In this document: positions 1 through 23,610 of the stretch, piece after piece
How positions within the stretch are numbered: the first letter of the stretch is position 1
How the letters are laid out: each line of letters starts with the position of its first letter
Source of the DNA: Rickettsiaceae bacterium
Lineage (GTDB): Bacteria; Pseudomonadota; Alphaproteobacteria; Rickettsiales; Rickettsiaceae
Length of the DNA stretch: 28,040 bases
Direction: 5' to 3'
Assembly (NCBI GenBank): GCA_033762035.1
Contig: JANRMA010000116.1
Span: 1 to 28,040 of the forward strand
Made by a program: the position numbers and the translations under genes
Notes under the pieces: generated by a model
The model's input: the letters and a program-made list of their open reading frames with translations, nothing else
Databases searched by the model: none
Told to the model about the DNA's origin: nothing

Positions 1-80
1 AGATTCCCTCTTTCGAGGGAATGACACATTATGTCACCCCCTTGAAAAAGTGGGCGAAGGAAATATTTATTCTAGATCCG
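1..80 (-). repeat. Palindromic REP-like repeat array 0 (A copy truncated by the window start, plus a B copy), inverted relative to arrays 1 and 2
   Basis: The minus strand of 1-26 reads TGTCA-TTCCC-TC-GAAA-GA-GGGAA-TCT (type A). The plus strand of 32-59 reads TGTCA-CCCCC-TT-GAAA-AA-GTGGG-CGAAG (type B). A 12-bp spacer (60-71) matches 6927-6938 in reverse complement. The array lies just 3' of addA. Confidence 0.9.
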
Positions 81-91
81 CACAGCAAATA

Positions 92-3000
92 TCACACCTT
101 CAGCTCTTCAAATTGATTATCCCTAAGCCAATATATATAAATTCTAACATTTGAGTCTGGATATATTATCTCTAAAGCTTGTTTATATTCATTCATCTGC
201 ACTTCATAATCTGCTTTTTTCTCTCTATCACCATCGGATTTATAATCTACTATATTTATCTCATTTGCATCCTTATTAAATGACACAAAATCAAGCCTTT
301 TGATTTGAAATCCATCTCCTGTATCATCTGATATCGCAATTTCTAACTCTGCTTCATTATTAAACCTGCCCAGATAATTTAAGAACTCGTTTTGCTCGCA
401 TTGAAATAATATGTTTCTAACCGATATTCTATCCTCCGCAGAAAGATTTTTAAGAAATTTATCAGTAAGTATTTGGGTAAAATTTTGCCCAGTTTGCATA
501 TAAATTTCTAATGCCTTGTGCAGTATTTCTCCTATAATAGTACTTTTATTGTTAAAATCGTAAAAAACCTTTTCTGCGCAATTGTCATATTTTGCGTTTA
601 GAGAATTAGGATTTATACTCACTATTTCATTCCCGTCATCTTTAAGGGGAGTTATTACATCTTCGGTATTTTGCGTCTCAATATTTTCACCCATTTTATG
701 GCTTTCTTTAAAATACTTAAGTAAAGAAAAACTACCATCTTCTTGATGCTCCAAATCTGAGAGGTTATTTTCTAAACAAAGCTCATACCAACTTTTATAC
801 TTATTCTCTTTTTTAGACTCTATTCCAGCAATAATTAAATGATCCTGAGTTCTTGTAAGAGCAACATAAAGAAGCCGTAAATATTCCTGATAATTTTCTT
901 GAATCACATTCTCTTTGATTGCGTCAATTTTTTCGTGGCGTACTTTAGAGCTAAGCACTGGCACTAAACCTGCGCCAAGATTCATATGAATTATATTACA
1001 CTTAGAATAAATATTTAAGTCGTTACTATCTATTAAAATTACAATTGGAGCCTCAAGCCCTTTTGCGCCATGAATAGTGGTGATTTTTATACTATCTAGA
1101 TGGGAAAAATCTCTTTTAACAGATATATCAGCTATTTCTAACAATAGAATAATATCGTTTATCCCAAGGGAAGGGTCTTCTGTAAATATCATTCTTATTT
1201 CATGTAAAAAGGCTTTTAGAGCATCAAGCTGCTCTTCATCTTCGCGAAGCCTATTTAATATATGAAAACTTTGTATAATATTTAAAAAAAACTCACTTTT
1301 ATCAGAATTTTCATAAATTAATTCTATAGATTTAAGTTTTTTTGATATAATACTATCTGACGCAATAATTGACTTATACCAATTTTTTTGACTTTTAAGA
1401 TAATATATATCTTCATCGCCCATATCAAATAAATGCGACTTTAAAAGACATGCGAGGTTCAAATTATCAGCAGGATCTATAATAAATTTTGCAACAGAAA
1501 TTAAGTCTCTTACAACTAAAGATTTACTTAAATATAACCTATCTAGCCCTGATATATTAATATTTTGCTTTAAAATTTCTTTATATAGCTCAAAATTCAA
1601 TGAAGATCTTTTTTGAACCAAAATCATAATATCTTCTGGTCTGACGCATCTTTTTTTACTGTCTAGATATATTTTATCATCAAGTAATTTCTTTATATAA
1701 ATAGCTGTTTTTTTAGCTAAAATTTGCTTAGGATTTTCTTGAGTAAAATACTCGCTAGATTCATTATTTTCAGCCGCCCGAATTGATTGTAACTCTTTAA
1801 GTTTTGAAGGATTTGGCCAAAATAAATCCTCTTTTTCTGTAGATTTAACTAACGGCCATATAGTAACAGAAGCATTTACATCTTGATTGCTACATTCTAA
1901 CATTCTAACTTGCTCTATTAAATCCACTTTACTAAAAATATTATACACGAAGTTAAATATTAACTTTGGCAATCTGTAGGTTTTTTCTAGATTACATTCT
2001 ACAAAATTAGCTTTGCTTTCTAATGCCTTGTTTTTTATGTAATTTTTTGCTTCTAGAAATAAGTCCGGCCTCGCTCCCTGAAAACTATAAATAGACTGTT
2101 TTACGTCCCCTACTACAAATATTGTCTTTTGTAGATTGCTATTAGCATTTACTTCATTGGCAAAAAAATCCTCTAGTAATGAGATTATAATATTCCATTG
2201 TTCTTGGCTTGTATCCTGGGATTCATCTACTAATATATGGTTAATCCCGCCATCTAATTTATATTTAATCCATTCTTTAATATCCGAATTACATAATAAA
2301 TTATATGCATAGTGAATTAAATCTTGATAATCAAGTAAGTTATTAATTTCTTTATAGTTTTTATATTCAGAAAATATAAAATTCGCAAGCCTCAATACTG
2401 ATACGTTAATCGCAAGTGCATTATTAAGATCTTGCGCGCTTGAAATTTCATATATATATTCTTGAATTTTGTATAAAACCTCTTCTGTGCGGGTAAGAAG
2501 ATTTTGTAAATCCTTTTTTGGTATTATTTTTTTTCTCTTTTGGCTGGTTTTTGTTAGAAAAAAAGATCTTACGTCTAGGTTAATAAATATTAAATCAAAA
2601 TTACTTGGTAAATTTTCAGAATAAAGCAAATTTAATTCCCTAAATTGCCGCAAAATACCTTGATTTTCTTGTATAATTTGATATAATTTTTGCCTCAACA
2701 TCTCTATTTCTTGCGTGCTTCTAGCGCCCAGCTCGCTCTTAAGTAATATATCAACAGCCTCTATAGAATTTTCGCTCAAATCAAGGCCAGAATAATAATG
2801 AGCTAATTCTTCTGTTATTTCTTTTAAACTATATAAAGATAAATTATTTTGCAGAACTTCATCGATATATATAGTAGTTTTTTGCGATAATAAAGTTTTT
2901 GCGATAAACCTGGATGCGCTAGTTTCGTCTATTACTCTAAAATATGGCTTCAAACCAGCCTCTAGAGGAAATTTTTGTAGTAAACTTTGGCAAAAAGCAT

Positions 3001-5097: not shown

Positions 5098-5294
5098 CGT
5101 CATTCCCACTCTCCCTCTGATTGTCATTCCTAAGCTGCGGCGGGAATCCAGAATAAATATCTCATGGACCCCCTTTTTCAAGGGGGTGACAAGTATGGAG
5201 TAGTCATTCTGGGGTGTCTTTATTTGTCATTCCCGCGAATGCGGGAATCCAGTCTTACTATTTCCTTCGCCACAATTTTGATTGGGGCGAAGGA
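5098..5294 (+). repeat. Palindromic REP-like repeat array 1 (linker, A, 12 bp, B, linker, A, 12 bp, fold-back hairpin)
   Basis: A copies at 5122-5151 and 5225-5252 (TGTCATTCCCGCGAATGCGGGAATCCAG). B copy at 5164-5191 (ATGGACCCCCTTTTTCAAGGGGGTGACA). 12-bp spacers at 5152-5163 and 5253-5264. Hairpin at 5263-5294. Confidence 0.92.
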
Positions 5295-5339
5295 TAAACA
5301 TTTTCATCCACCTCAAAGGAGGCTCTATGCGGATGGGTA

Positions 5340-6641
5340 TTATTTCATTATTGGGCACACTTCTTGCGTTGTATTCTCAATGAGTGCCATGCGAGCTTGC
5401 CTCGCTTTTTCACCCGCTGGTTCTGCGCCTAGTCCAATATCTGCGCCTGCGCCTATTAAAGCAGCTACTATAGATTCAGTCGACTCGCGCTCTTGAACCC
5501 ACGCTGCTCCAGGTACATAACCATTTATTATAAGATCCAACAATTCTTCTAGAGAGTTTGTTAGAGCAATAGAAAGGGCGGTGCGGCCACGAGAATCTTG
5601 AGCATTCACATCGGCACGCACTTCTATCAGAGCCTCTACTACTCTTGCATTTGTGTAATTTACTGCACGATGTAGAAGTGTATCTCCATACCTATCTTTA
5701 GCATTCACATCCGCACCCGCTTTTATCAGAGCCTCTGCTATACAACTATCATCTGAGCATGATACTGTAACATCTAGAAGTGTATTTCCAGGCCAATCTT
5801 TAGCATTCACATCCGCACCCGCTTTTATCAGAGCCTCTAATACTGTTTGATAATGCCTATCTTTTGCACTATGTAAAGGTATATTGCCAAGCCTATCTTT
5901 AGCATTAACATCTGCGTCCGCTTTTATCATAGCATCTACTACTTCTGCATTATTGAGAATTACTGCACGATGTAGAGGCGTCATTCCATCACTATCCTTA
6001 GCATTCACATCAGCGCCTAGATCTATAAGAGTCTTTACTTTAGTTGTATCAGTATTATATTTTAATGATTTTAATGCATGATCTAGAGGCGTATTGCTAC
6101 AATAATTTTTAGCATTCACATCAGCGCCTAGATCTATAAGAGTCTGTACTAGTATTGCTTCACTGCGCTCTGCTGCACGATGTAGAGGCGTATTGCCACG
6201 AGCATCTTTAGCATTCACATCGGCACCCGCTTTTATCAGAGTCTGCGATACTATTGCATGATCTAGAACTGCTGCATGATGTAGAGGCGTCATTCCATCA
6301 CTATCTTTAGCATTTACATCAGCGCCTAGATCTATAAGAACCAGTGCCATATCTATACGATCATACTCTAATGCAAAATGTAGAGGAGTACTGCCAGACT
6401 CATTTTTAGCATTTAAGTCAGAGCCCGCTATTAGCAATTGTTGTACGTCGTCAATATGCCCCTCTCTTGAGGCTTCAAATAATTGATTGTTTAGGTTTTG
6501 CTGAAAAGGATTAATTTGCTCTTCTGCAACTTCTTCTTGAGGAGTGTGGGCTCTATTTATTCCAGTATCGCCATTATTAATACCATTTTCTTCTAATGTA
6601 TTTAATGGCAAAAGAGCTTCATTATTATTATCATTTTCCAT
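5340..6641 (-). CDS. Ankyrin-repeat protein (about 10 repeats), candidate secreted effector (ank1)
   Basis: 433 aa. Repeated TPLHxA...LIxxGADVNAKD units follow an acidic, Asn-rich, low-complexity N-terminal leader. Confidence 0.92.
   Translation of the reverse strand: MENDNNNEALLPLNTLEENGINNGDTGINRAHTPQEEVAEEQINPFQQNLNNQLFEASREGHIDDVQQLLIAGSDLNAKNESGSTPLHFALEYDRIDMALVLIDLGADVNAKDSDGMTPLHHAAVLDHAIVSQTLIKAGADVNAKDARGNTPLHRAAERSEAILVQTLIDLGADVNAKNYCSNTPLDHALKSLKYNTDTTKVKTLIDLGADVNAKDSDGMTPLHRAVILNNAEVVDAMIKADADVNAKDRLGNIPLHSAKDRHYQTVLEALIKAGADVNAKDWPGNTLLDVTVSCSDDSCIAEALIKAGADVNAKDRYGDTLLHRAVNYTNARVVEALIEVRADVNAQDSRGRTALSIALTNSLEELLDLIINGYVPGAAWVQERESTESIVAALIGAGADIGLGAEPAGEKARQARMALIENTTQEVCPIMK
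5595..6420 (-). repeat. Intragenic approximately 99-bp tandem ankyrin DNA repeats
   Basis: GCATT(C/T/A)A junctions fall at 5602, 5701, 5803, 5902, 6001, 6112, 6211, 6310 and 6409 (periods 99, 102 and 111). 5694-5736 is identical to 5796-5838. 5964-6030 and 6273-6339 match at 64 of 67 positions. Confidence 0.9.
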
Positions 6642-6676
6642 AATTATCTACCTAAATTTAATATTTATTGATATAT

Positions 6677-6705
6677 CTTATAGCAATTATAATAAATGTT
6701 GTCAA
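6677..6705 (-). promoter_or_regulatory. Putative sigma70 promoter of ank1
   Basis: The minus strand reads TTGACA-N17-TATAAG with a TG extended -10 element, 36 bp upstream of the ATG. Confidence 0.5.
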
Positions 6706-6715
6706 GGAAATTTAT

Positions 6716-6999
6716 AGGGATCTAGAGTAAATATCTCTTTCGCCCTCTATTTTCAAGGGGGTGACAAGGCTTAGAGAGTCATTCCCACTCCTCATTGTCA
6801 TTCCCACGAAGGTGGGAATCCAGTCTTACTATTTAATGGACCCCCTTTTTCAAGGGGGTGACAAAAGGCAAATCTCTTATTCTCTGGCTCCCTCTCATTG
6901 TCATTCCCTCGAAAGAGGGAATCCAGAATAAATATTTCCTTCGCCCCCTTTTACAAGGGGGTGACACAATGCATCATACCCTCTAAAGTAGGAATCTAG
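6716..6999 (+). repeat. Palindromic REP-like repeat array 2 (three A/B doublets plus a terminal degenerate A)
   Basis: B copies at 6738-6766, 6836-6863 and 6939-6966. A copies at 6796-6823 and 6899-6926, with a degenerate copy at 6972-6999 and a remnant near 6716-6725. 12-bp spacers at 6726-6737, 6824-6835 and 6927-6938. Confidence 0.93.
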
Positions 7000-7042: not shown

Positions 7043-7243
7043 TTAGTTATCCATTAATTTTTTTCTAACTAACTTTCTTCTTCTCCTTTCAGATTCTTGT
7101 TTTTTTCTTACTTTTTTTACTGAATCAGGTTCATAGAATCTAGACATTTTCATGTATCTAAAGACTAATTCTCTTTGCATTTTTCTTTTTAGGTTCCGAA
7201 TAGCTTGCTCTCCGTTGCCCGCATGTACTGATACTTGAATCAC
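7043..7243 (-). CDS. rpsU: 30S ribosomal protein S21
   Basis: 66 aa (MIQVSVHAGNGEQAIRNLKRKMQRE...RFYEPDSVKK). GTG start with an AGGAGGT Shine-Dalgarno at 7254-7260. Confidence 0.93.
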   Translation of the reverse strand: MIQVSVHAGNGEQAIRNLKRKMQRELVFRYMKMSRFYEPDSVKKVRKKQESERRRRKLVRKKLMDN

Positions 7244-7436: not shown

Positions 7437-9416
7437 TTGAGTCAAAATAGTAATTTCTCTGATAGTAATTTCTTAGATCAAGAGGTAAATAATTTAAGTT
7501 TTTGGTACATTATATCTTTCTTATTCGGAATATTGTATTTTTTCTACTTTTTACAGGATTTAAATTATAATTTTGCTAAGGATAGATTATTTTATTTTGC
7601 CATTATAGTATCTATAGTCTTGCTATATATAATATGGCGCATCGGCTTTAATACATTCAATTTGTTTTCATTTATTTTAAGACTAGCTCTATTTTTTTTA
7701 ATAGGATATCTATGTATATCTCTTAGATGCAATGCAAATTTTGAATCTCTTGATCATGACTTAAAAAACTGCTTGATAGAGGGCAAAATAATCAAAATCA
7801 AACCCACACCTTTTGGCGCCCAAGTTACATTACAAAACGTTAAATTACATAGTAGCTTTGATATGAGCAATATTAAATGCACATATAAAATACTTCCATT
7901 TAATGTTAGGGTAAATTTGAACAGAAAATATAGCAAAAATCTTCTTCACGGGGATGTAATTGCTTTAAAAGTAGATTTACTATGCCTGCCGGAAGAAATA
8001 GTCCCCGGCGGTTATAATTTCCGCAAAATTGCGTTTTTTTCTAATATAGGCGCTATTGCTAAGGCTAAATCTTATCCAAAAGTTATTACAAAGCAAGTGA
8101 GTTTTTATAGCATTCAGACTATAAGAAAAAAAATATTTAACTATCTTTTGGAAAACCTTGGGTATAAAAATGGCAATTTTGCTGCGGCGCTTTTTTTAGG
8201 GGAGGCGGGCGGTATAGACAAAACCATTTTAAATAATATGAGATATGCAGGAATATCTCATATATTATGCGTTTCTGGACTGCACCTTTCTTTGGTCGCT
8301 TCATTAGTATTTTTTAGCTCTAGAATATTCTTAAATTGTTTTGATTATATAAATTTTAATTTTGATATAAAAAAAATTTCTGCTTTTATATCTATTTTTG
8401 TTAGTTTTTTGTATCTTATATTAACCGGCGTCCAGATAGCAGCTTCAAGAGCATTTATTATGGTATTTTTTGTAATGATGACAATCATTTTAGATAGGCA
8501 TTCGCATCCATTAAGATCAATTTCTCTTGCTTGTTTTGCTATGTTATTAATAAATCCGGAATATGCTATATTGCCTAGTTTTCAGCTCTCATTTATAGCA
8601 GTACTCTCCTTGCTTGCAGGATATGAATATTACTCAAAATTTATCACTTCTCGCAAGGGCAGCATTTTTTATAATATTAAAATCTATTTATACTCGAATA
8701 TTTATTCATCGTTAATTGCAAGTAGTGCAACAAGCCCATTAGTTATGTATCATTTTTACATATATTCTAATTATTCACTTGCGGCTAACCTTGTAGCCGT
8801 ACCTCTAACTTCTTTTGTTATAATGCCATGTGCGGTGCTTGCTATTTTATTATACCCTATATATTTAGATTTTATTCCTACATATTTTATAAGCTTGTCT
8901 ATAGATATTATAAATTATGCAGCATCTGTTACTACAAATCTTCCCTTTTCCGTAATTTATACTGGATATGTTAGTAATATAGCTATTTTGAGCTTTATAT
9001 TAGGATTTTTTTGGCTATGTCTTTTTCGGAGTAATATAAGATTTTACGGTATTATTGGACCAATAATTTTTATTATTATTTTTTATACAGGACAGGGGCC
9101 TGATATACTTATTAATAAACGAGCTAATTTCGTAGCAGAAAAAAGAAGTGGCAAAGTTATTATTTACTCAGAGTATCTTTCGCCTTTTGCAAAAAATTTT
9201 ATTGCTAATTGGTTTGGGTGTAGAGAGTCTATTTTTGTAAAAAAAAATATGAAGCAGCCATTAAATTTATTTTACGAAACTACAGATCAAAATATTGAAA
9301 TTAATTTAGATAAATCTTTAGTAAAAATACATAATAGTCCTTATGAGCCTATCGCAGACATGTCCGTAATTTATTTTGCTAACCAAAATAAACCAATAAT
9401 AGAAAAAATAAAGTAA
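7437..9416 (+). CDS. comEC: ComEC/Rec2 competence membrane channel protein (no recognisable C-terminal metallo-beta-lactamase domain)
   Basis: 659 aa with a TTG start (exact start uncertain). GISHILCVSGLHL, SRAFIM, SFQLSFIAV and ANLVAVPL are Competence-domain motifs, and there are multiple TM segments. Confidence 0.85.
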   Translation: MSQNSNFSDSNFLDQEVNNLSFWYIISFLFGILYFFYFLQDLNYNFAKDRLFYFAIIVSIVLLYIIWRIGFNTFNLFSFILRLALFFLIGYLCISLRCNANFESLDHDLKNCLIEGKIIKIKPTPFGAQVTLQNVKLHSSFDMSNIKCTYKILPFNVRVNLNRKYSKNLLHGDVIALKVDLLCLPEEIVPGGYNFRKIAFFSNIGAIAKAKSYPKVITKQVSFYSIQTIRKKIFNYLLENLGYKNGNFAAALFLGEAGGIDKTILNNMRYAGISHILCVSGLHLSLVASLVFFSSRIFLNCFDYINFNFDIKKISAFISIFVSFLYLILTGVQIAASRAFIMVFFVMMTIILDRHSHPLRSISLACFAMLLINPEYAILPSFQLSFIAVLSLLAGYEYYSKFITSRKGSIFYNIKIYLYSNIYSSLIASSATSPLVMYHFYIYSNYSLAANLVAVPLTSFVIMPCAVLAILLYPIYLDFIPTYFISLSIDIINYAASVTTNLPFSVIYTGYVSNIAILSFILGFFWLCLFRSNIRFYGIIGPIIFIIIFYTGQGPDILINKRANFVAEKRSGKVIIYSEYLSPFAKNFIANWFGCRESIFVKKNMKQPLNLFYETTDQNIEINLDKSLVKIHNSPYEPIADMSVIYFANQNKPIIEKIK

Positions 9417-22026: not shown

Positions 22027-23610
22027 TTAGATCGATTCTTCTGAGTCCGAGCAGTAGCCAGTTAGTTCATAATTCTCTGGTGGATTTATATCTAAATCCA
22101 TCATTTTCATTGTAATACTAGTAACATTTTCTGGCATTTTCATTGTAATACTAGTAACATTTTCTGGGTACATAGAATCATCATTTTCATTTCTTGGTCT
22201 CTTATTCTGAATAGAATCATTATTAGATTGCTCGCAATCTTTACTCTCATCTTCACCTTCATTTCTTGGTCTCTTAATCTCAGAGCTAGAAGATTCTGTA
22301 TCTTTCGTCTCATCTTCCCCTTCCTGATTGTAACAGTTTAATAAAATCTCATCTGGTAACTCTTTTAGTAAATTTGCTTTAGCTTCAAGCACTAGGGGGT
22401 GCTCGCGTAAATCATCTGGTATTGTTTCTCCAAGTTTCATAAGAGTAAGAAAACCATCAATCTTATGATAATCTTCATCTAAGTAATCACCTCCATCTTG
22501 TATTATATGATAAGCTCCGCTTCTAGAAGCGCCATTTTGCTTTAAGATATGTGCATGTTTAAAATTCCCATTAACGCATGCTGCAATAAAGGCTGTGTAT
22601 CCATCTTTATTTTTAGCGTTTATATCAACACCTTTTTCTATTAATTTAATTATTACCTCGCTCATGTCATCTTCTGACCTTGCGGAATCGATAAGTGCAT
22701 TTATACCACAGAGGCCTCTCACACATGCCCCCAATTCTATAAGATACAAAGCCGGTTCTTTGTCTTCCTTGTAACATGCATATTCTAATAAAGAGAACCC
22801 GTTAATTATACCATTTATATTAGCTCCTGCATCTATTAACATTTCTATTAATTGAGGATTTTTAGTATTTATGGCTTCATAAAGTGGCATAGAATTATCT
22901 TTAGGCGAACTATAAAGCCCATTAACATTTACGCCTTTATCTATTAACACTTTCACTAAATTTTCCATATTATTCTTACAAGCTTTCGATAATATATAAG
23001 GATTCTCTATTTTTGCTCCTTTTTCTACTAACATGATTGCTAATTCTTCCATGCTATTGCTAATCGCCCAAATTAATGGGGTCCAGCCGTCTTCATCTTG
23101 TTGATTAATATCAGCTCCTTTATTTATTAAAGCCATCGCTACTTCTGTATGACCATTTCTAATCGCCCAAATTAATGGGGTCCGGCCGTTTCCATCCTGC
23201 CGATTAACATCAGCTTCTTTATTTATTAAAGCTATGGCTACTTCTGTATTACCCTTGATAATCGCCAAAGTTAAGGGGGTCCAGCCGTTTCCATTCTGCT
23301 GATTAACATCTGCTCCTCTATCTATTAAAACCATGGCTACTTCTGTATTACCCTTGCTAATCGCCAAAAATAAGGGGGTACAGCCGTCTCGATCCTGCTG
23401 ATTAATATCTGCTCCTGCATCTATCAAATCCGAGACTGCTTGTGTATTACCCTCTGCAGCGGCAAAATGGAGCATAAAATAAAATTTTAGCATTTTTTGT
23501 GCTAAATTTAGAACATCTCGTGTTAGAGCTCCATGGTTCCCACCATAAAATATGATGCGAGTATATTTCTTAAGTTCCTCAGGCGACATGGATGGAGTGT
23601 CTGGTTCCAT
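22027..23610 (-). CDS. Ankyrin-repeat protein (about 10 repeats) with an F-box-like motif and acidic C-terminal tail, candidate effector (ank2)
   Basis: 527 aa. Repeated TPLxxAIxxGxTE...GADINxxD units. Adjacent DNA repeats at 23060-23090 and 23159-23189 match at 30 of 31 positions (offset 99). The tail contains LKELPDEILL and two KRPRNE copies. Confidence 0.92.
   Translation of the reverse strand: MEPDTPSMSPEELKKYTRIIFYGGNHGALTRDVLNLAQKMLKFYFMLHFAAAEGNTQAVSDLIDAGADINQQDRDGCTPLFLAISKGNTEVAMVLIDRGADVNQQNGNGWTPLTLAIIKGNTEVAIALINKEADVNRQDGNGRTPLIWAIRNGHTEVAMALINKGADINQQDEDGWTPLIWAISNSMEELAIMLVEKGAKIENPYILSKACKNNMENLVKVLIDKGVNVNGLYSSPKDNSMPLYEAINTKNPQLIEMLIDAGANINGIINGFSLLEYACYKEDKEPALYLIELGACVRGLCGINALIDSARSEDDMSEVIIKLIEKGVDINAKNKDGYTAFIAACVNGNFKHAHILKQNGASRSGAYHIIQDGGDYLDEDYHKIDGFLTLMKLGETIPDDLREHPLVLEAKANLLKELPDEILLNCYNQEGEDETKDTESSSSEIKRPRNEGEDESKDCEQSNNDSIQNKRPRNENDDSMYPENVTSITMKMPENVTSITMKMMDLDINPPENYELTGYCSDSEESI
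22102..22167. repeat. Perfect 33-bp in-frame tandem duplication in ank2 (PENVTSITMKM x2)
   Basis: CATTTTCATTGTAATACTAGTAACATTTTCTGG occurs at 22102-22134 and 22135-22167. Confidence 0.95.

Follow-up and report, generated by a model that had tools for sequence, protein, structure and literature searches.

What are the short tagged hairpins that stand in tandem on both sides of an ankyrin-repeat gene in this Rickettsiaceae genome, and what has spread them? The window analysed here is a 28,040-nt stretch of contig JANRMA010000116.1, which belongs to a draft assembly (G000) of 1.23 Mb in 186 contigs that is 86% complete and from which contigs shorter than 1.5 kb were dropped. Its TLC transporter and ankyrin genes, and the pattern of kinship among the genomes compared, point to the Rickettsiaceae. 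The comparison within the genus covers four genomes, namely the present assembly and the congeners G001, G002 and G003. G001 is a sister species, with an assembly that is 95% complete and holds 297 repeat copies. A family-level comparison of REPs with the nuclease gene ssn covers 130 genomes.

A preliminary description of the window distinguished two types of 28-bp hairpin, A and B, joined as doublets. All the repeat copies that it named are present (Table 1). As it also noted, no enzyme for them is encoded in the window, whose copies are hairpin-forming, tagged and non-autonomous. A scan of the whole window against Rfam gave a single match, to SurC, which at 26.5 bits against a cut-off of 80 bits we judge to be due to chance.

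Table 1. Hairpin copies, spacers and gene context in the window
Positions	Strand	Feature	Remark
1..26	-	type A, inner pair T-A, loop GAAA	tail lost at contig start; perfect reverse complement of 6899-6923
32..59	+	type B variant, CGAAG tail, one stem mismatch	
60..71	.	12-bp spacer GAAATATTTATT	reverse complement of AAT-type spacer
72..97	-	degenerate remnant of long A variant	compared with 5122-5151
5098..5121	+	half-A motif: tag and left arm only (CGTCATTCCCAC + ~12 nt)	5' of full A
5122..5151	+	long 30-nt A variant, disrupted stem (TCATTCCTAAGCTGCGGCGGGAAT)	~13 copies genome-wide
5152..5163	.	12-bp spacer, AAT type	
5164..5191	-	type B, ACCCCCTT stem, GAAA loop, CCAT tail	
5225..5252	+	type A, inner pair G-C, loop GAAT	sole window copy fitting the published SRM pattern
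5253..5264	.	12-bp spacer, TCTT type	
5265..5293	-	degenerate B variant	rebuilt into CCTTCGCC/GGCGAAGG palindrome
5340..6641	-	ankyrin-repeat gene between both arrays	context only
6700..6725	+	degenerate A copy	
6726..6737	.	12-bp spacer	
6738..6766	-	B variant, CGAAA tail	
6796..6823	+	type A, inner pair A-T, loop GAAG	identical to the genome's master copy
6824..6835	.	12-bp spacer, TCTT type	
6836..6863	-	type B, ACCCCC stem	
6899..6926	+	type A, inner pair T-A, loop GAAA	
6927..6938	.	12-bp spacer, AAT type	
6939..6966	-	B variant, CGAAG tail	
6972..6999	+	degenerate A copy	array end

Architecture and family of the hairpins

Allowing no more than one mismatch in the stem, we count about 180 hairpins with the TGTC tag in the genome, about 82 of type A and about 98 of type B. 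The pattern GTCATNCC-N10-GGNATCYAG has 155 exact matches in the genome, and its reversed control has none; in a large sister genus, the same 27-nt pattern occurs 0–605 times per genome. Each 28-mer follows one plan: a 4-nt TGTC tag, an 8-bp stem that opens with A-T and then T-A, a 4-nt GNAN loop, and a CCAG tail. A wider scan returned 274 GTC-tagged hairpins, with the tags TGTC (191), AGTC (44), GGTC (21) and CGTC (18), about 90 of these hairpins being AT-rich background. In the same scan, the tail is CCAG in 157 copies and CTAG in 21, and the loop is 4 nt long in 203. The preliminary description had drawn the stem as five plus two pairs with an unpaired A and T, but the predicted fold is a continuous stem of 8 bp, ATTCCCNC or ATCCCCTY. 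The form that it gave for type B, ACCCCC...CCAT, does occur in the window but is a minority variant; the genome-wide B consensus ends in TCCAG, like that of A, and has C-G in place of T-A at stem position 3.

The compensatory covariation first claimed from a few copies proves to be strong in the stems across the genome. At position 7 of the type A stem, 53 copies have A-T, 11 have T-A and 9 have G-C; this position is Watson-Crick in 73 of 76 copies, a count equalled in 0 of 2000 shuffles. Type B varies at stem position 8, with T-A in 83 copies and C-G in 14. When 69 doublets of the two species are taken together, pairing holds in 97.5% of cells (at most 53% in slid controls), and the covariation score is 0.134, compared with 0.063 when shuffled and with 0 of 500 shuffles as high. 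The loops, which had been likened to those of stable mini-hairpins, do fit the GNAN/GNRA type. In particular, the C-GAAG-G of type A fits a stable class of ssDNA loop, GNAB with a C-G closing pair.

Judged by sequence, types A and B are two stem variants of one already described repeat class, family CGTC-1 of the CGTC-tagged REPs, which has been equated with Neisseria dRS3 and R. conorii RPE-6 (Di Nocera, De Gregorio & Rocco 2013, PMC3733652). They have in common with CGTC-1 the CGTC or TGTC tag, the 8-bp stem opening with A-T/T-A, the 4-nt loop, the CCA-type tail, and the arrangement in dimers with outward tags. The likeness of type A to dRS3, RPE and CGTC/TGTC-tagged REPs, already recognized in the preliminary description, holds. 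Type A fits the dRS3 core, ATTCCC-N8-GGGAAT, whereas type B (ATCCCC...GGGGAT) does not; the link to RPE-6 comes from the equation made in PMC3733652, not from a named RPE-6 sequence. The B partner and its geometry with A had been thought undescribed. However, B-like stem variants are frequent as partners across bacteria (20 of 81 partners), and CGTC-1 elements are mostly dimers with outward tags, heterodimers in some species, with most spacers of 20–100 bp and with clusters known in Neisseria and Wolbachia (PMC3733652). B copies and doublets thus belong, in essence, to a catalogued REP/RPE family, and the claim of novelty is not supported. Certain differences from CGTC-1 are clear. The present repeats have inner stem pairs A-T/T-A rather than G-C, pair strictly A with B, have a discrete spacer of 12 bp where most CGTC-1 dimers have 20–100 bp, and form regular tandem arrays of 79 or ~100 bp. 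What is still particular to this lineage is the compact spacing of 12 bp, together with the tandem arrays. In a Rickettsia-like genus, doublets with short spacers are rare, at 1–4 per genome.

Doublets, arrays and their genomic sites

Tail-to-tail junctions, of which there are 56–58 genome-wide, always join A with B, with the tails facing and the tags outward. Every such junction in the window has a spacer of 12 bp, as first reported (at 5152, 5253, 6726, 6824, 6927 and 60), and genome-wide 52 of 56 junctions have precisely this length. This constancy had been taken as a sign of selection on spacing rather than on sequence. However, each spacer belongs to one of two inherited families of sequence, AATAAATATCTC-like and TCTTACCATCTC-like, both of which are also found in the sister species G001, where the spacer length differs (12, 14 or 15 bp). 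Spacers in other phyla measure 6–24 bp. The exact doublet type of G000 was not found in metagenome contigs.

The tandem arrays have periods of 78–81 or 97–104 bp, and all the doublets of one array have the same orientation, which shows no relation to local GC skew (Fisher p = 1). Higher-order periods of 143–256 bp, with 86–96% identity, are also seen, and the half-A motif recurs across the genome in longer units of ~100 bp. The intergenic mosaic elements of Neisseria have the same hairpin core, and they too form arrays with few intervening modules and adjoin variable or surface/effector-type genes; the present modules are much shorter (12-nt spacer, ~11-nt linker), and the arrays far more regular.

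Could the arrays be structures that the host selects, with no dedicated enzyme? According to the classical view of REP/BIME function, such hairpins would act as 3′-end stabilizers or terminators, or as sites for gyrase or nucleoid proteins, and would be amplified by recombination and subject to concerted evolution. In line with this, the arrays are intergenic, lie 5–300 bp from gene ends, and clearly enlarge by tandem duplication, and the hairpins are stable in RNA and DNA form alike (z-scores of -4 to -5). Several observations nevertheless make this explanation unlikely. GNAN loops appear when each hairpin is read on its own tag strand, and hence on opposite strands within one doublet, a pattern that no single transcript explains. 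No T run follows the hairpins, and there is no excess of G-U-type pairs, A-C mismatches being at least as common in the stems as G-T wobble pairs. Moreover, the sites differ among congeners, two of which have 0–4 copies, and the repeats co-occur strongly with, and are physically linked to, ssn (see below).

Most arrays of G000 and G001 lie at sites that are not orthologous: about 3 of 40 neighbour genes are likely orthologous, where chance predicts about 6. For this reason, we do not favour a reading in which ancestral arrays were homogenized by concerted evolution. The rpsU flank of the window is free of repeats in both G001 and G003. The gene order rpsU-then-ank is kept in G003, a congener without any repeat, and delivery of the ankyrin gene as a cassette by the repeats was rejected on this ground. 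In an empty-site comparison, the rpsU-ank intergenic regions of G000 and G003 do not align, and no target site is readable from them. As a separate observation, ankyrin effector genes are modestly enriched beside the arrays, recalling the way in which NTS copies cluster near variable genes in Neisseria.

The nuclease gene ssn and other candidate enzymes

SsnA is a GIY-YIG nuclease that cuts the Neisseria NTS only as single-stranded DNA (Chenal 2025, PMC11893778). Ssn proteins have a single GIY-YIG domain of the cd10448 type and are ~100 aa long; in vitro work on enzymes from Neisseria and Wolbachia has shown that Ssn binds the hairpin on the tag strand only, as ssDNA, and cuts a few bases 5′ of the tag. 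The type A consensus has 3 mismatches to the published 28-nt NTS, and the type B consensus has 7. The published degenerate SRM pattern finds 10 sites in the genome (0–2 in controls) and leaves consensus A and B unmatched. It is an imperfect criterion, since the A copy lying next to ssn in G001 escapes it as well.

A GIY-YIG gene flanked by A and B copies, a prospect raised in the preliminary description, is present in the congener G001 but is not found in the G000 assembly. The gene in G001 is an intact 95-aa ORF (Pfam E = 3.5e-16). A B copy ends 22 nt upstream of its ATG, and an inverted A copy begins directly after its stop codon; the polarity, B then A, matches that of the gene-less doublets. 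On inspection by eye, the 12–14-nt spacers are too short for us to claim any homology to the inner ends of this cassette. Tyr and Glu residues of this protein lie one position off the catalytic Y6, Y17 and E64 named in PMC11893778.

A similar layout is seen at 12 ssn loci from several genera: in 9–10 of the 12, a forward REP starts 44–49 nt before the matched ssn stretch, and in 9–10 an inverted REP has its tag 31–34 nt after it. Among the 130 family genomes, ssn is matched in 49 of 61 that bear REPs and in 8 of 69 that lack them (odds ratio 31). When the largest genus is left out, the odds ratio is 6.7 (p = 3e-4), with the caveat that the Fisher p-values make the association look stronger than it is, as related genomes are not independent. 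In 80 metagenome loci (0.5 Mb), chosen solely by an exact B 27-mer, there are 8 ssn-like ORFs, 5 of which have a REP of the same class within 150 bp. Within the genus, 297 copies accompany ssn in G001, whereas G002 has 4 copies and an ssn remnant of 26 aa, and G003 has neither ssn nor copies. In G000, searches by tblastn, phmmer and a family HMM returned no homologue or remnant of ssn, but absence from an assembly that is 86% complete and stripped of contigs below 1.5 kb does not amount to absence from the genome. G000 is one of 7 repeat-rich exceptions, as an ssn match is also absent from six further repeat-rich genomes of the family.

Taken against the NTS/SRM system of PMC11893778, the present repeats have in common with it the 28-nt directional hairpin, the motif-gene-motif layout (in the sister species and across the family), a motif count that tracks the presence of ssn, and the clustering of copies around particular genes. 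They differ in that no ssn is found in the G000 assembly, and in that consensus A and B lie outside the published SRM pattern. In addition, the host here is obligately intracellular, so that no part in natural transformation is apparent. The text of that paper available to us does not describe gene-less doublets, or tandem arrays of them, as such.

The preliminary description had looked to a different enzyme. It regarded the tagged hairpins as HUH/RAYT substrates, that is, as REPINs moved by an IS200/IS605-type HUH Y1 transposase that recognizes tag and hairpin in ssDNA. The doublets do fall under the definition of a REPIN (two inverted REPs within 130 bp); the 21-mer ATTCCCGCGCAGGCGGGAATC, whose core is that of type A, is used for Neisseria as the seed of the REPINs of a Group 2 RAYT; and a small REP-flanked gene could have been lost with the filtered contigs (<1.5 kb). 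However, searches of the genus's four genomes with PF01797 (Y1_Tnp) and with a local HMM gave no match, even in the 95% complete G001 with its 297 copies. Members of the family that are rich in IS200 have few or no REPs. Y1_Tnp is missing from three of five distant genomes with 3–223 copies, and the single gene in each of the other two is not flanked by REPs; the survey of Di Nocera 2013 (PMC3733652) likewise detected no RAYT between CGTC units. We therefore consider a RAYT a highly improbable source of the doublets. An IS200-like gene that adjoins a REP dimer in another genome (G018) has end hairpins of its own and looks like a chance neighbour. In form, REPIN/RAYT systems and E. coli BIMEs do resemble the present repeats, with paired inverted hairpins, two alternating subtypes and few conserved linkers. 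Further points of likeness are the tandem arrays, known from BIME-2, and the non-autonomous copies that rely on one enzyme gene bracketed by the same repeats. Nonetheless, REPINs and BIMEs have a GTAG tag and a Y1 HUH transposase, whereas here the tag is TGTC, there is no Y1, and relatives have a GIY-YIG nuclease; the present repeats are thus not members of that group. The sequences of the E. coli BIME (GTAG Y/Z REPs, S/L/r/l linkers) are unrelated to them, and the layout is analogous only.

Since dRS3 is a known target of a phage recombinase in Neisseria (PMC11893778), one might also view the repeats as attachment or target sites for recombinases of the IS110 family or of filamentous phages. 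We give this view very little credence. We find no IS110 DEDD transposase in G000, G001 or G003, and only a broken copy in G002; besides, being a target leaves the amplification into arrays unexplained. As enzymes, Rpn/Transposase_31 (a single gene, confined to G000 and away from the repeats) and DUF559 (a marginal match inside a giant ORF) were likewise rejected. None of these three, IS110 included, is common to both repeat-rich species.

Proposed origin of the doublets

The layout of the doublets is the layout that brackets ssn in relatives, and for this reason we read a doublet as the two ends of an SRM-ssn-SRM cassette that lacks the gene, and liken it to a MITE, the short form of a transposon that has no gene of its own. 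In our judgement, A and B are probably known Ssn-related repeats, and the doublets gene-less cassettes spread by an Ssn-dependent process on ssDNA. Each strand of a doublet would offer one putatively cleavable hairpin, and the process may carry doublets to new intergenic sites. There, slippage, unequal recombination and gene conversion would enlarge and homogenize the arrays, in units of one to three doublets. The copies in the window would be non-autonomous, their cognate ssn either lying in an unassembled part of the genome or having been lost very recently.

A simple model of cutting at both ends does not follow, because only one hairpin of a doublet is in the cleavable orientation on each strand. 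Ssn is demonstrated as a nuclease and not as a transposase. We know of no strand-joining activity or excision product for it. More tentatively, SRM-ssn-SRM could itself be a ssDNA transposon driven by its GIY-YIG enzyme, with the A/B doublets as spreading gene-less miniatures and the 12-bp spacer as what remains after loss of the gene; we regard this as possible but rather doubtful. If true, it would represent a class of mobile element without an HUH, DDE or serine/tyrosine enzyme.

Taken alone, the locus is an ordinary case of a repeat class that was described in 2013 and tied in 2025 to the Ssn ssDNA nuclease. One consequence concerns motif censuses: as the published SRM pattern misses the master copies of G000, censuses that use it undercount such lineages. 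Finally, the genus offers a natural experiment, in which two species, with 155 and 297 copies, each have their own master sequences and different loci, a third has 4 copies and an ssn remnant, and the fourth has neither. The conserved position of ssn, with a B-type hairpin on one side and an A-type on the other, and the existence of gene-less doublets provide a concrete model of doublet origin, and the sharp contrast among the four species in repeat load and ssn status makes for a clean comparison by which to ask whether Ssn spreads its motifs.

Copies, arrays and covariation of the hairpins

All of the copies and 12-bp junctions that the preliminary description listed in the window are present. 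Across the draft genome (G000; 1.23 Mb in 186 contigs, 33% G+C, 85.7% complete), 155 exact matches to GTCATNCC-N10-GGNATCYAG are found, against none for the reversed control pattern. With up to one stem mismatch allowed, the count is about 180 hairpins, 82 of type A and 98 of type B. The master copies, TGTC-ATTCCCAC-GAAG-GTGGGAAT-CCAG (type A) and TGTC-ATCCCCTT-GAAA-AAGGGGAT-CCAG (type B), are built to the same plan, in which a 4-nt tag is followed by a continuous 8-bp stem enclosing a 4-nt loop, and then by a CCAG tail. The ACCCCC...CCAT and CGAAG-tailed forms, by which type B had been characterized, do occur in the window but are minority variants genome-wide.

Tail-facing junctions join A with B in every case, and the spacer is exactly 12 bp in 52/56 of them. 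Head-facing linkers are variable, with 10–17 nt between TCA heads, or 29–40 nt where an extra half-A motif (tag plus left arm) sits between. Within each array the doublets run head-to-tail in uniform orientation, with periods of 78–81 or 97–104 bp and higher-order periods of 143–256 bp (86–96% identity). The true repeat load is probably above the assembled count, because at least 14 of the 34 array loci touch a contig end. Half-sites, consisting of the tag and left arm of A followed by ~9 nt, adjoin complete A copies on their tag side in runs of one to four with a ~21-nt period, both here and in the congener G001 (see table). Slippage at the hairpin and abortive events are possible origins.

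The claim of compensatory covariation is borne out. Among copies detected in G000 by their outer arms only, position 7 of the type A stem is A-T in 53 copies, T-A in 11 and G-C in 9; hence, 73/76 are Watson-Crick, and 0/2000 shuffles did as well. Position 8 of type B is T-A in 83 copies and C-G in 14. In 69 distinct doublets from G000 and G001, 97.5% of cells are paired, six pairs have both partners changed, and covariation scores 0.134 versus 0.063 in shuffles (0/500 as high). None of these figures is a probability, since the copies are related by amplification. Sliding the partner columns lowers pairing in the doublet set to 53% or less. That a single position has three pair types and no wobble intermediates nevertheless shows that hairpin palindromy is maintained. 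The doublet folds as two independent 8-bp hairpins, around which TGTC:GACA and CCAG:CTGG are able to close. This tail pairing is a by-product of inverted symmetry, as the tail pairs do not covary (36 copies have C-G and 31 have U-G).

Known relatives of the repeat and its spacer

CGTC-tagged REPs were described by Di Nocera et al. 2013 (PMC3733652). Their family CGTC-1 has 8-bp stems beginning AT, 4-nt loops and CCA tails; dimers with outward tags predominate, and heterodimers occur in some species. The family forms clusters in Neisseria and Wolbachia and has been equated with dRS3 and with RPE-6 of R. conorii (PMC3733652). Because these features match, type B and the doublets essentially belong to an already catalogued REP family, and the view that the B partner and the A/B geometry were undescribed does not hold.

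In a cross-phylum pattern scan using one genome per species, the A-type hairpin with its inverted partner was found nearly unchanged in Desulfobacterota, Nitrospirota, Planctomycetota, Chloroflexota, Patescibacteria, Gemmatimonadota, Omnitrophota and several proteobacterial classes (loci L007–L126), extending its range to many phyla beyond the five given in 2013. The partners in these doublets have GNAN loops and use all four Watson-Crick pairs at stem position 3 (78/81 paired versus 33.5 in shuffles), with C-G, the type B state, in 20/81. Closer to home, the pattern is present in 61/131 genomes of the family of G000, with copy numbers between 0 and 605. Only this genus and one other have the compact A/B doublet in quantity; in four genomes sampled from the two large sister genera it numbers 1–4 per genome.

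The spacer was described as fixed in length and free in sequence. The 12-bp length stands, but the sequences are not arbitrary: they form two inherited families, AATAAATATCTC-like and TCTTACCATCTC-like. G001 carries both, as AATATATAATTC-like and TCTTTATATTTC-like, together with additional classes of 14 and 15 bp. Spacers are 11–13 bp in G048, a member of another genus. Where this repeat forms doublets in other phyla they range from 6 to 24 bp, 15–16 bp being most frequent. The constant length in G000 is therefore owed largely to descent from a small number of master copies.

The partner enzyme

The tagged hairpins had been likened to substrates of an HUH/RAYT transposase. None of the four genomes of the genus, however, has a PF01797 gene, not even G001 (95% complete, 297 copies); relatives rich in IS200 carry few REPs or none; and among five distant REP-bearing genomes the Y1 gene is absent in three and present in two as a single copy without REP flanks. 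We therefore reject this enzyme as the partner.

Chenal et al. 2025 (PMC11893778) report that the Neisseria counterpart, the 28-nt NTS (CGTCATTCCCGCGMAVGCGGGAATCYRG), contains dRS3 and is bound and cut by SsnA, a GIY-YIG protein of ~100 aa, as ssDNA only, on that strand only and slightly upstream. They also report that ssn is typically bracketed by the motif, and that motif-rich taxa include Rickettsia and Wolbachia. The preliminary description had proposed searching for a nuclease gene flanked by A and B copies. No such gene was found in G000, but G001 has one, an intact 95-aa GIY-YIG ORF (Pfam E 3.5e-16): it is bracketed by a B copy, whose end lies 22 nt upstream of the start codon, and by an inverted A copy that follows the stop codon immediately, in the B-then-A polarity of the gene-less doublets. 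At 9–10 of 12 ssn loci from several genera, the forward REP starts 44–49 nt before the matched ssn stretch and the inverted REP tag lies 31–34 nt after it. Across 130 genomes, an ssn match is found in 49/61 with REPs versus 8/69 without (odds ratio 6.7, p = 3e-4, when the largest genus is excluded), statistics that are inflated by kinship among the genomes. Eighty metagenome loci (0.5 Mb), chosen only for the exact B 27-mer, contain eight ssn-like ORFs, five of them with a same-class REP within 150 bp. The genus itself shows a gradation, from G001 with ssn and 297 copies, through G002 with a 26-aa remnant and four copies, to G003 with neither.

G000 departs from this pattern, in that tblastn, phmmer and the family HMM detected no ssn gene or fragment in its contigs, the smallest of which is 1512 bp. 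This does not establish absence, because shorter contigs are missing from the assembly, and an ssn cassette of ~370 bp between arrays would assemble into just such a contig and be dropped. Judging from the sequences, the 41 A and 37 B copies that are identical argue for recent activity, so we expect ssn in the unassembled part. The sole GIY-YIG match in G000 lies in a 317-aa open frame, provisionally a putative uvrC by analogy with congener frames of 619–626 aa; it may be truncated or frameshifted.

Genomic setting and proposed spread of the arrays

Coordinates of features in the window, in other G000 contigs and in G001
Feature	Location	Strand	Remark
Half-sites	window 5098-5121, 5202-5224, 6777-6795		
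Half-sites	G001 L206:1780-1880		
Copy fitting the SRM pattern	window 5225-5252		only one in window
Ankyrin gene	window 5340-6641		arrays on both sides
Array	window 6700-6999		directly downstream of rpsU
rpsU	window 7043-7243		
comEC	window 7437-9416		near array
Second ankyrin-repeat gene	window 22027-23610	minus	
33-bp duplication	window 22102-22167		perfect, tandem, within second ankyrin-repeat gene
Ankyrin gene	C70:776-1564		arrays on both sides
Ankyrin genes	C7, C52, C186		adjoin arrays
GIY-YIG match	C35:5944-6171		
Rpn-type (Transposase_31) gene	C161:442-1050		intact, single; not near repeats
DUF559 match	C26:6719-6934		marginal; not near repeats
Paralogous array loci	C28:9400-10144, C152:2480-3330		

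The window is contig C116 in full. Its genes include those for a TLC ATP/ADP transporter, two ankyrin-repeat proteins, ComEC, S21, a UvrD-type helicase, PpdK, IspB and GyrB, but none for a transposase or nuclease. Judging by gene content and the pattern of kinship, the bacterium is probably obligately intracellular and Rickettsiaceae-like. Elsewhere in G000, the Rpn-type gene was not seen in the three congeners, and the open frame that holds the DUF559 match is at least 2361 aa long. ComEC is the ssDNA uptake channel in transformable bacteria. Since Ssn acts on incoming ssDNA in Neisseria, the closeness of array and comEC deserves mention, though it may be coincidence. Ankyrin genes are modestly enriched beside arrays (5/40 neighbour ORFs versus 25/879 others; one-sided Fisher p = 0.008), a pattern reminiscent of Neisseria, where NTS copies cluster around variable genes. 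The arrays did not bring in the ankyrin gene that lies between them in the window, because G003, which lacks the repeats, also has rpsU followed by ank.

Ssn is reported to recognise the tag-strand hairpin in ssDNA and to cut 5′ of it (PMC11893778). The GNAN loop of each hairpin here lies on the tag strand of that hairpin, the halves of a doublet being read on opposite strands; C-GAAG-G of type A falls within the class of GNAB loops closed by a C-G pair, which are especially stable in ssDNA, and wobble pairs are not favoured in the stems. These features are consistent with recognition as DNA and speak against a role as RNA. A doublet would present only one cleavable hairpin per strand. We infer that doublets are the two ends of an ssn cassette without the gene, and that they may have reached new sites by a process that depends on Ssn. 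G000 and G001 have their arrays mostly at different loci (~3 likely orthologous neighbours of 40; ~6 by chance), and the rpsU flank is repeat-free in both G001 and G003. Once in place, arrays would grow as blocks of one to three units are duplicated in tandem, and may also exchange modules. The paralogous loci on C28 and C152 are ~86% identical, including unique flanks, and share a 256-bp higher-order layout, yet the spacer types at matching positions differ. A segmental duplication combined with gene conversion could account for this, or the bin may be a mixture of two strains.

The hairpin doublets are thus genuine, and the preliminary description portrays them well, but both the repeat class to which they belong and the enzyme family that partners it are already known; the strict A/B pairing, compact spacer and regular arrays are lineage-specific. 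The degenerate SRM (Ssn-related motif) pattern as published (PMC11893778) finds only 10 sites in G000 and misses consensus A and B; the A copy lying next to ssn in G001 escapes it too. Censuses of the motif that rely on this pattern will undercount lineages such as this one.
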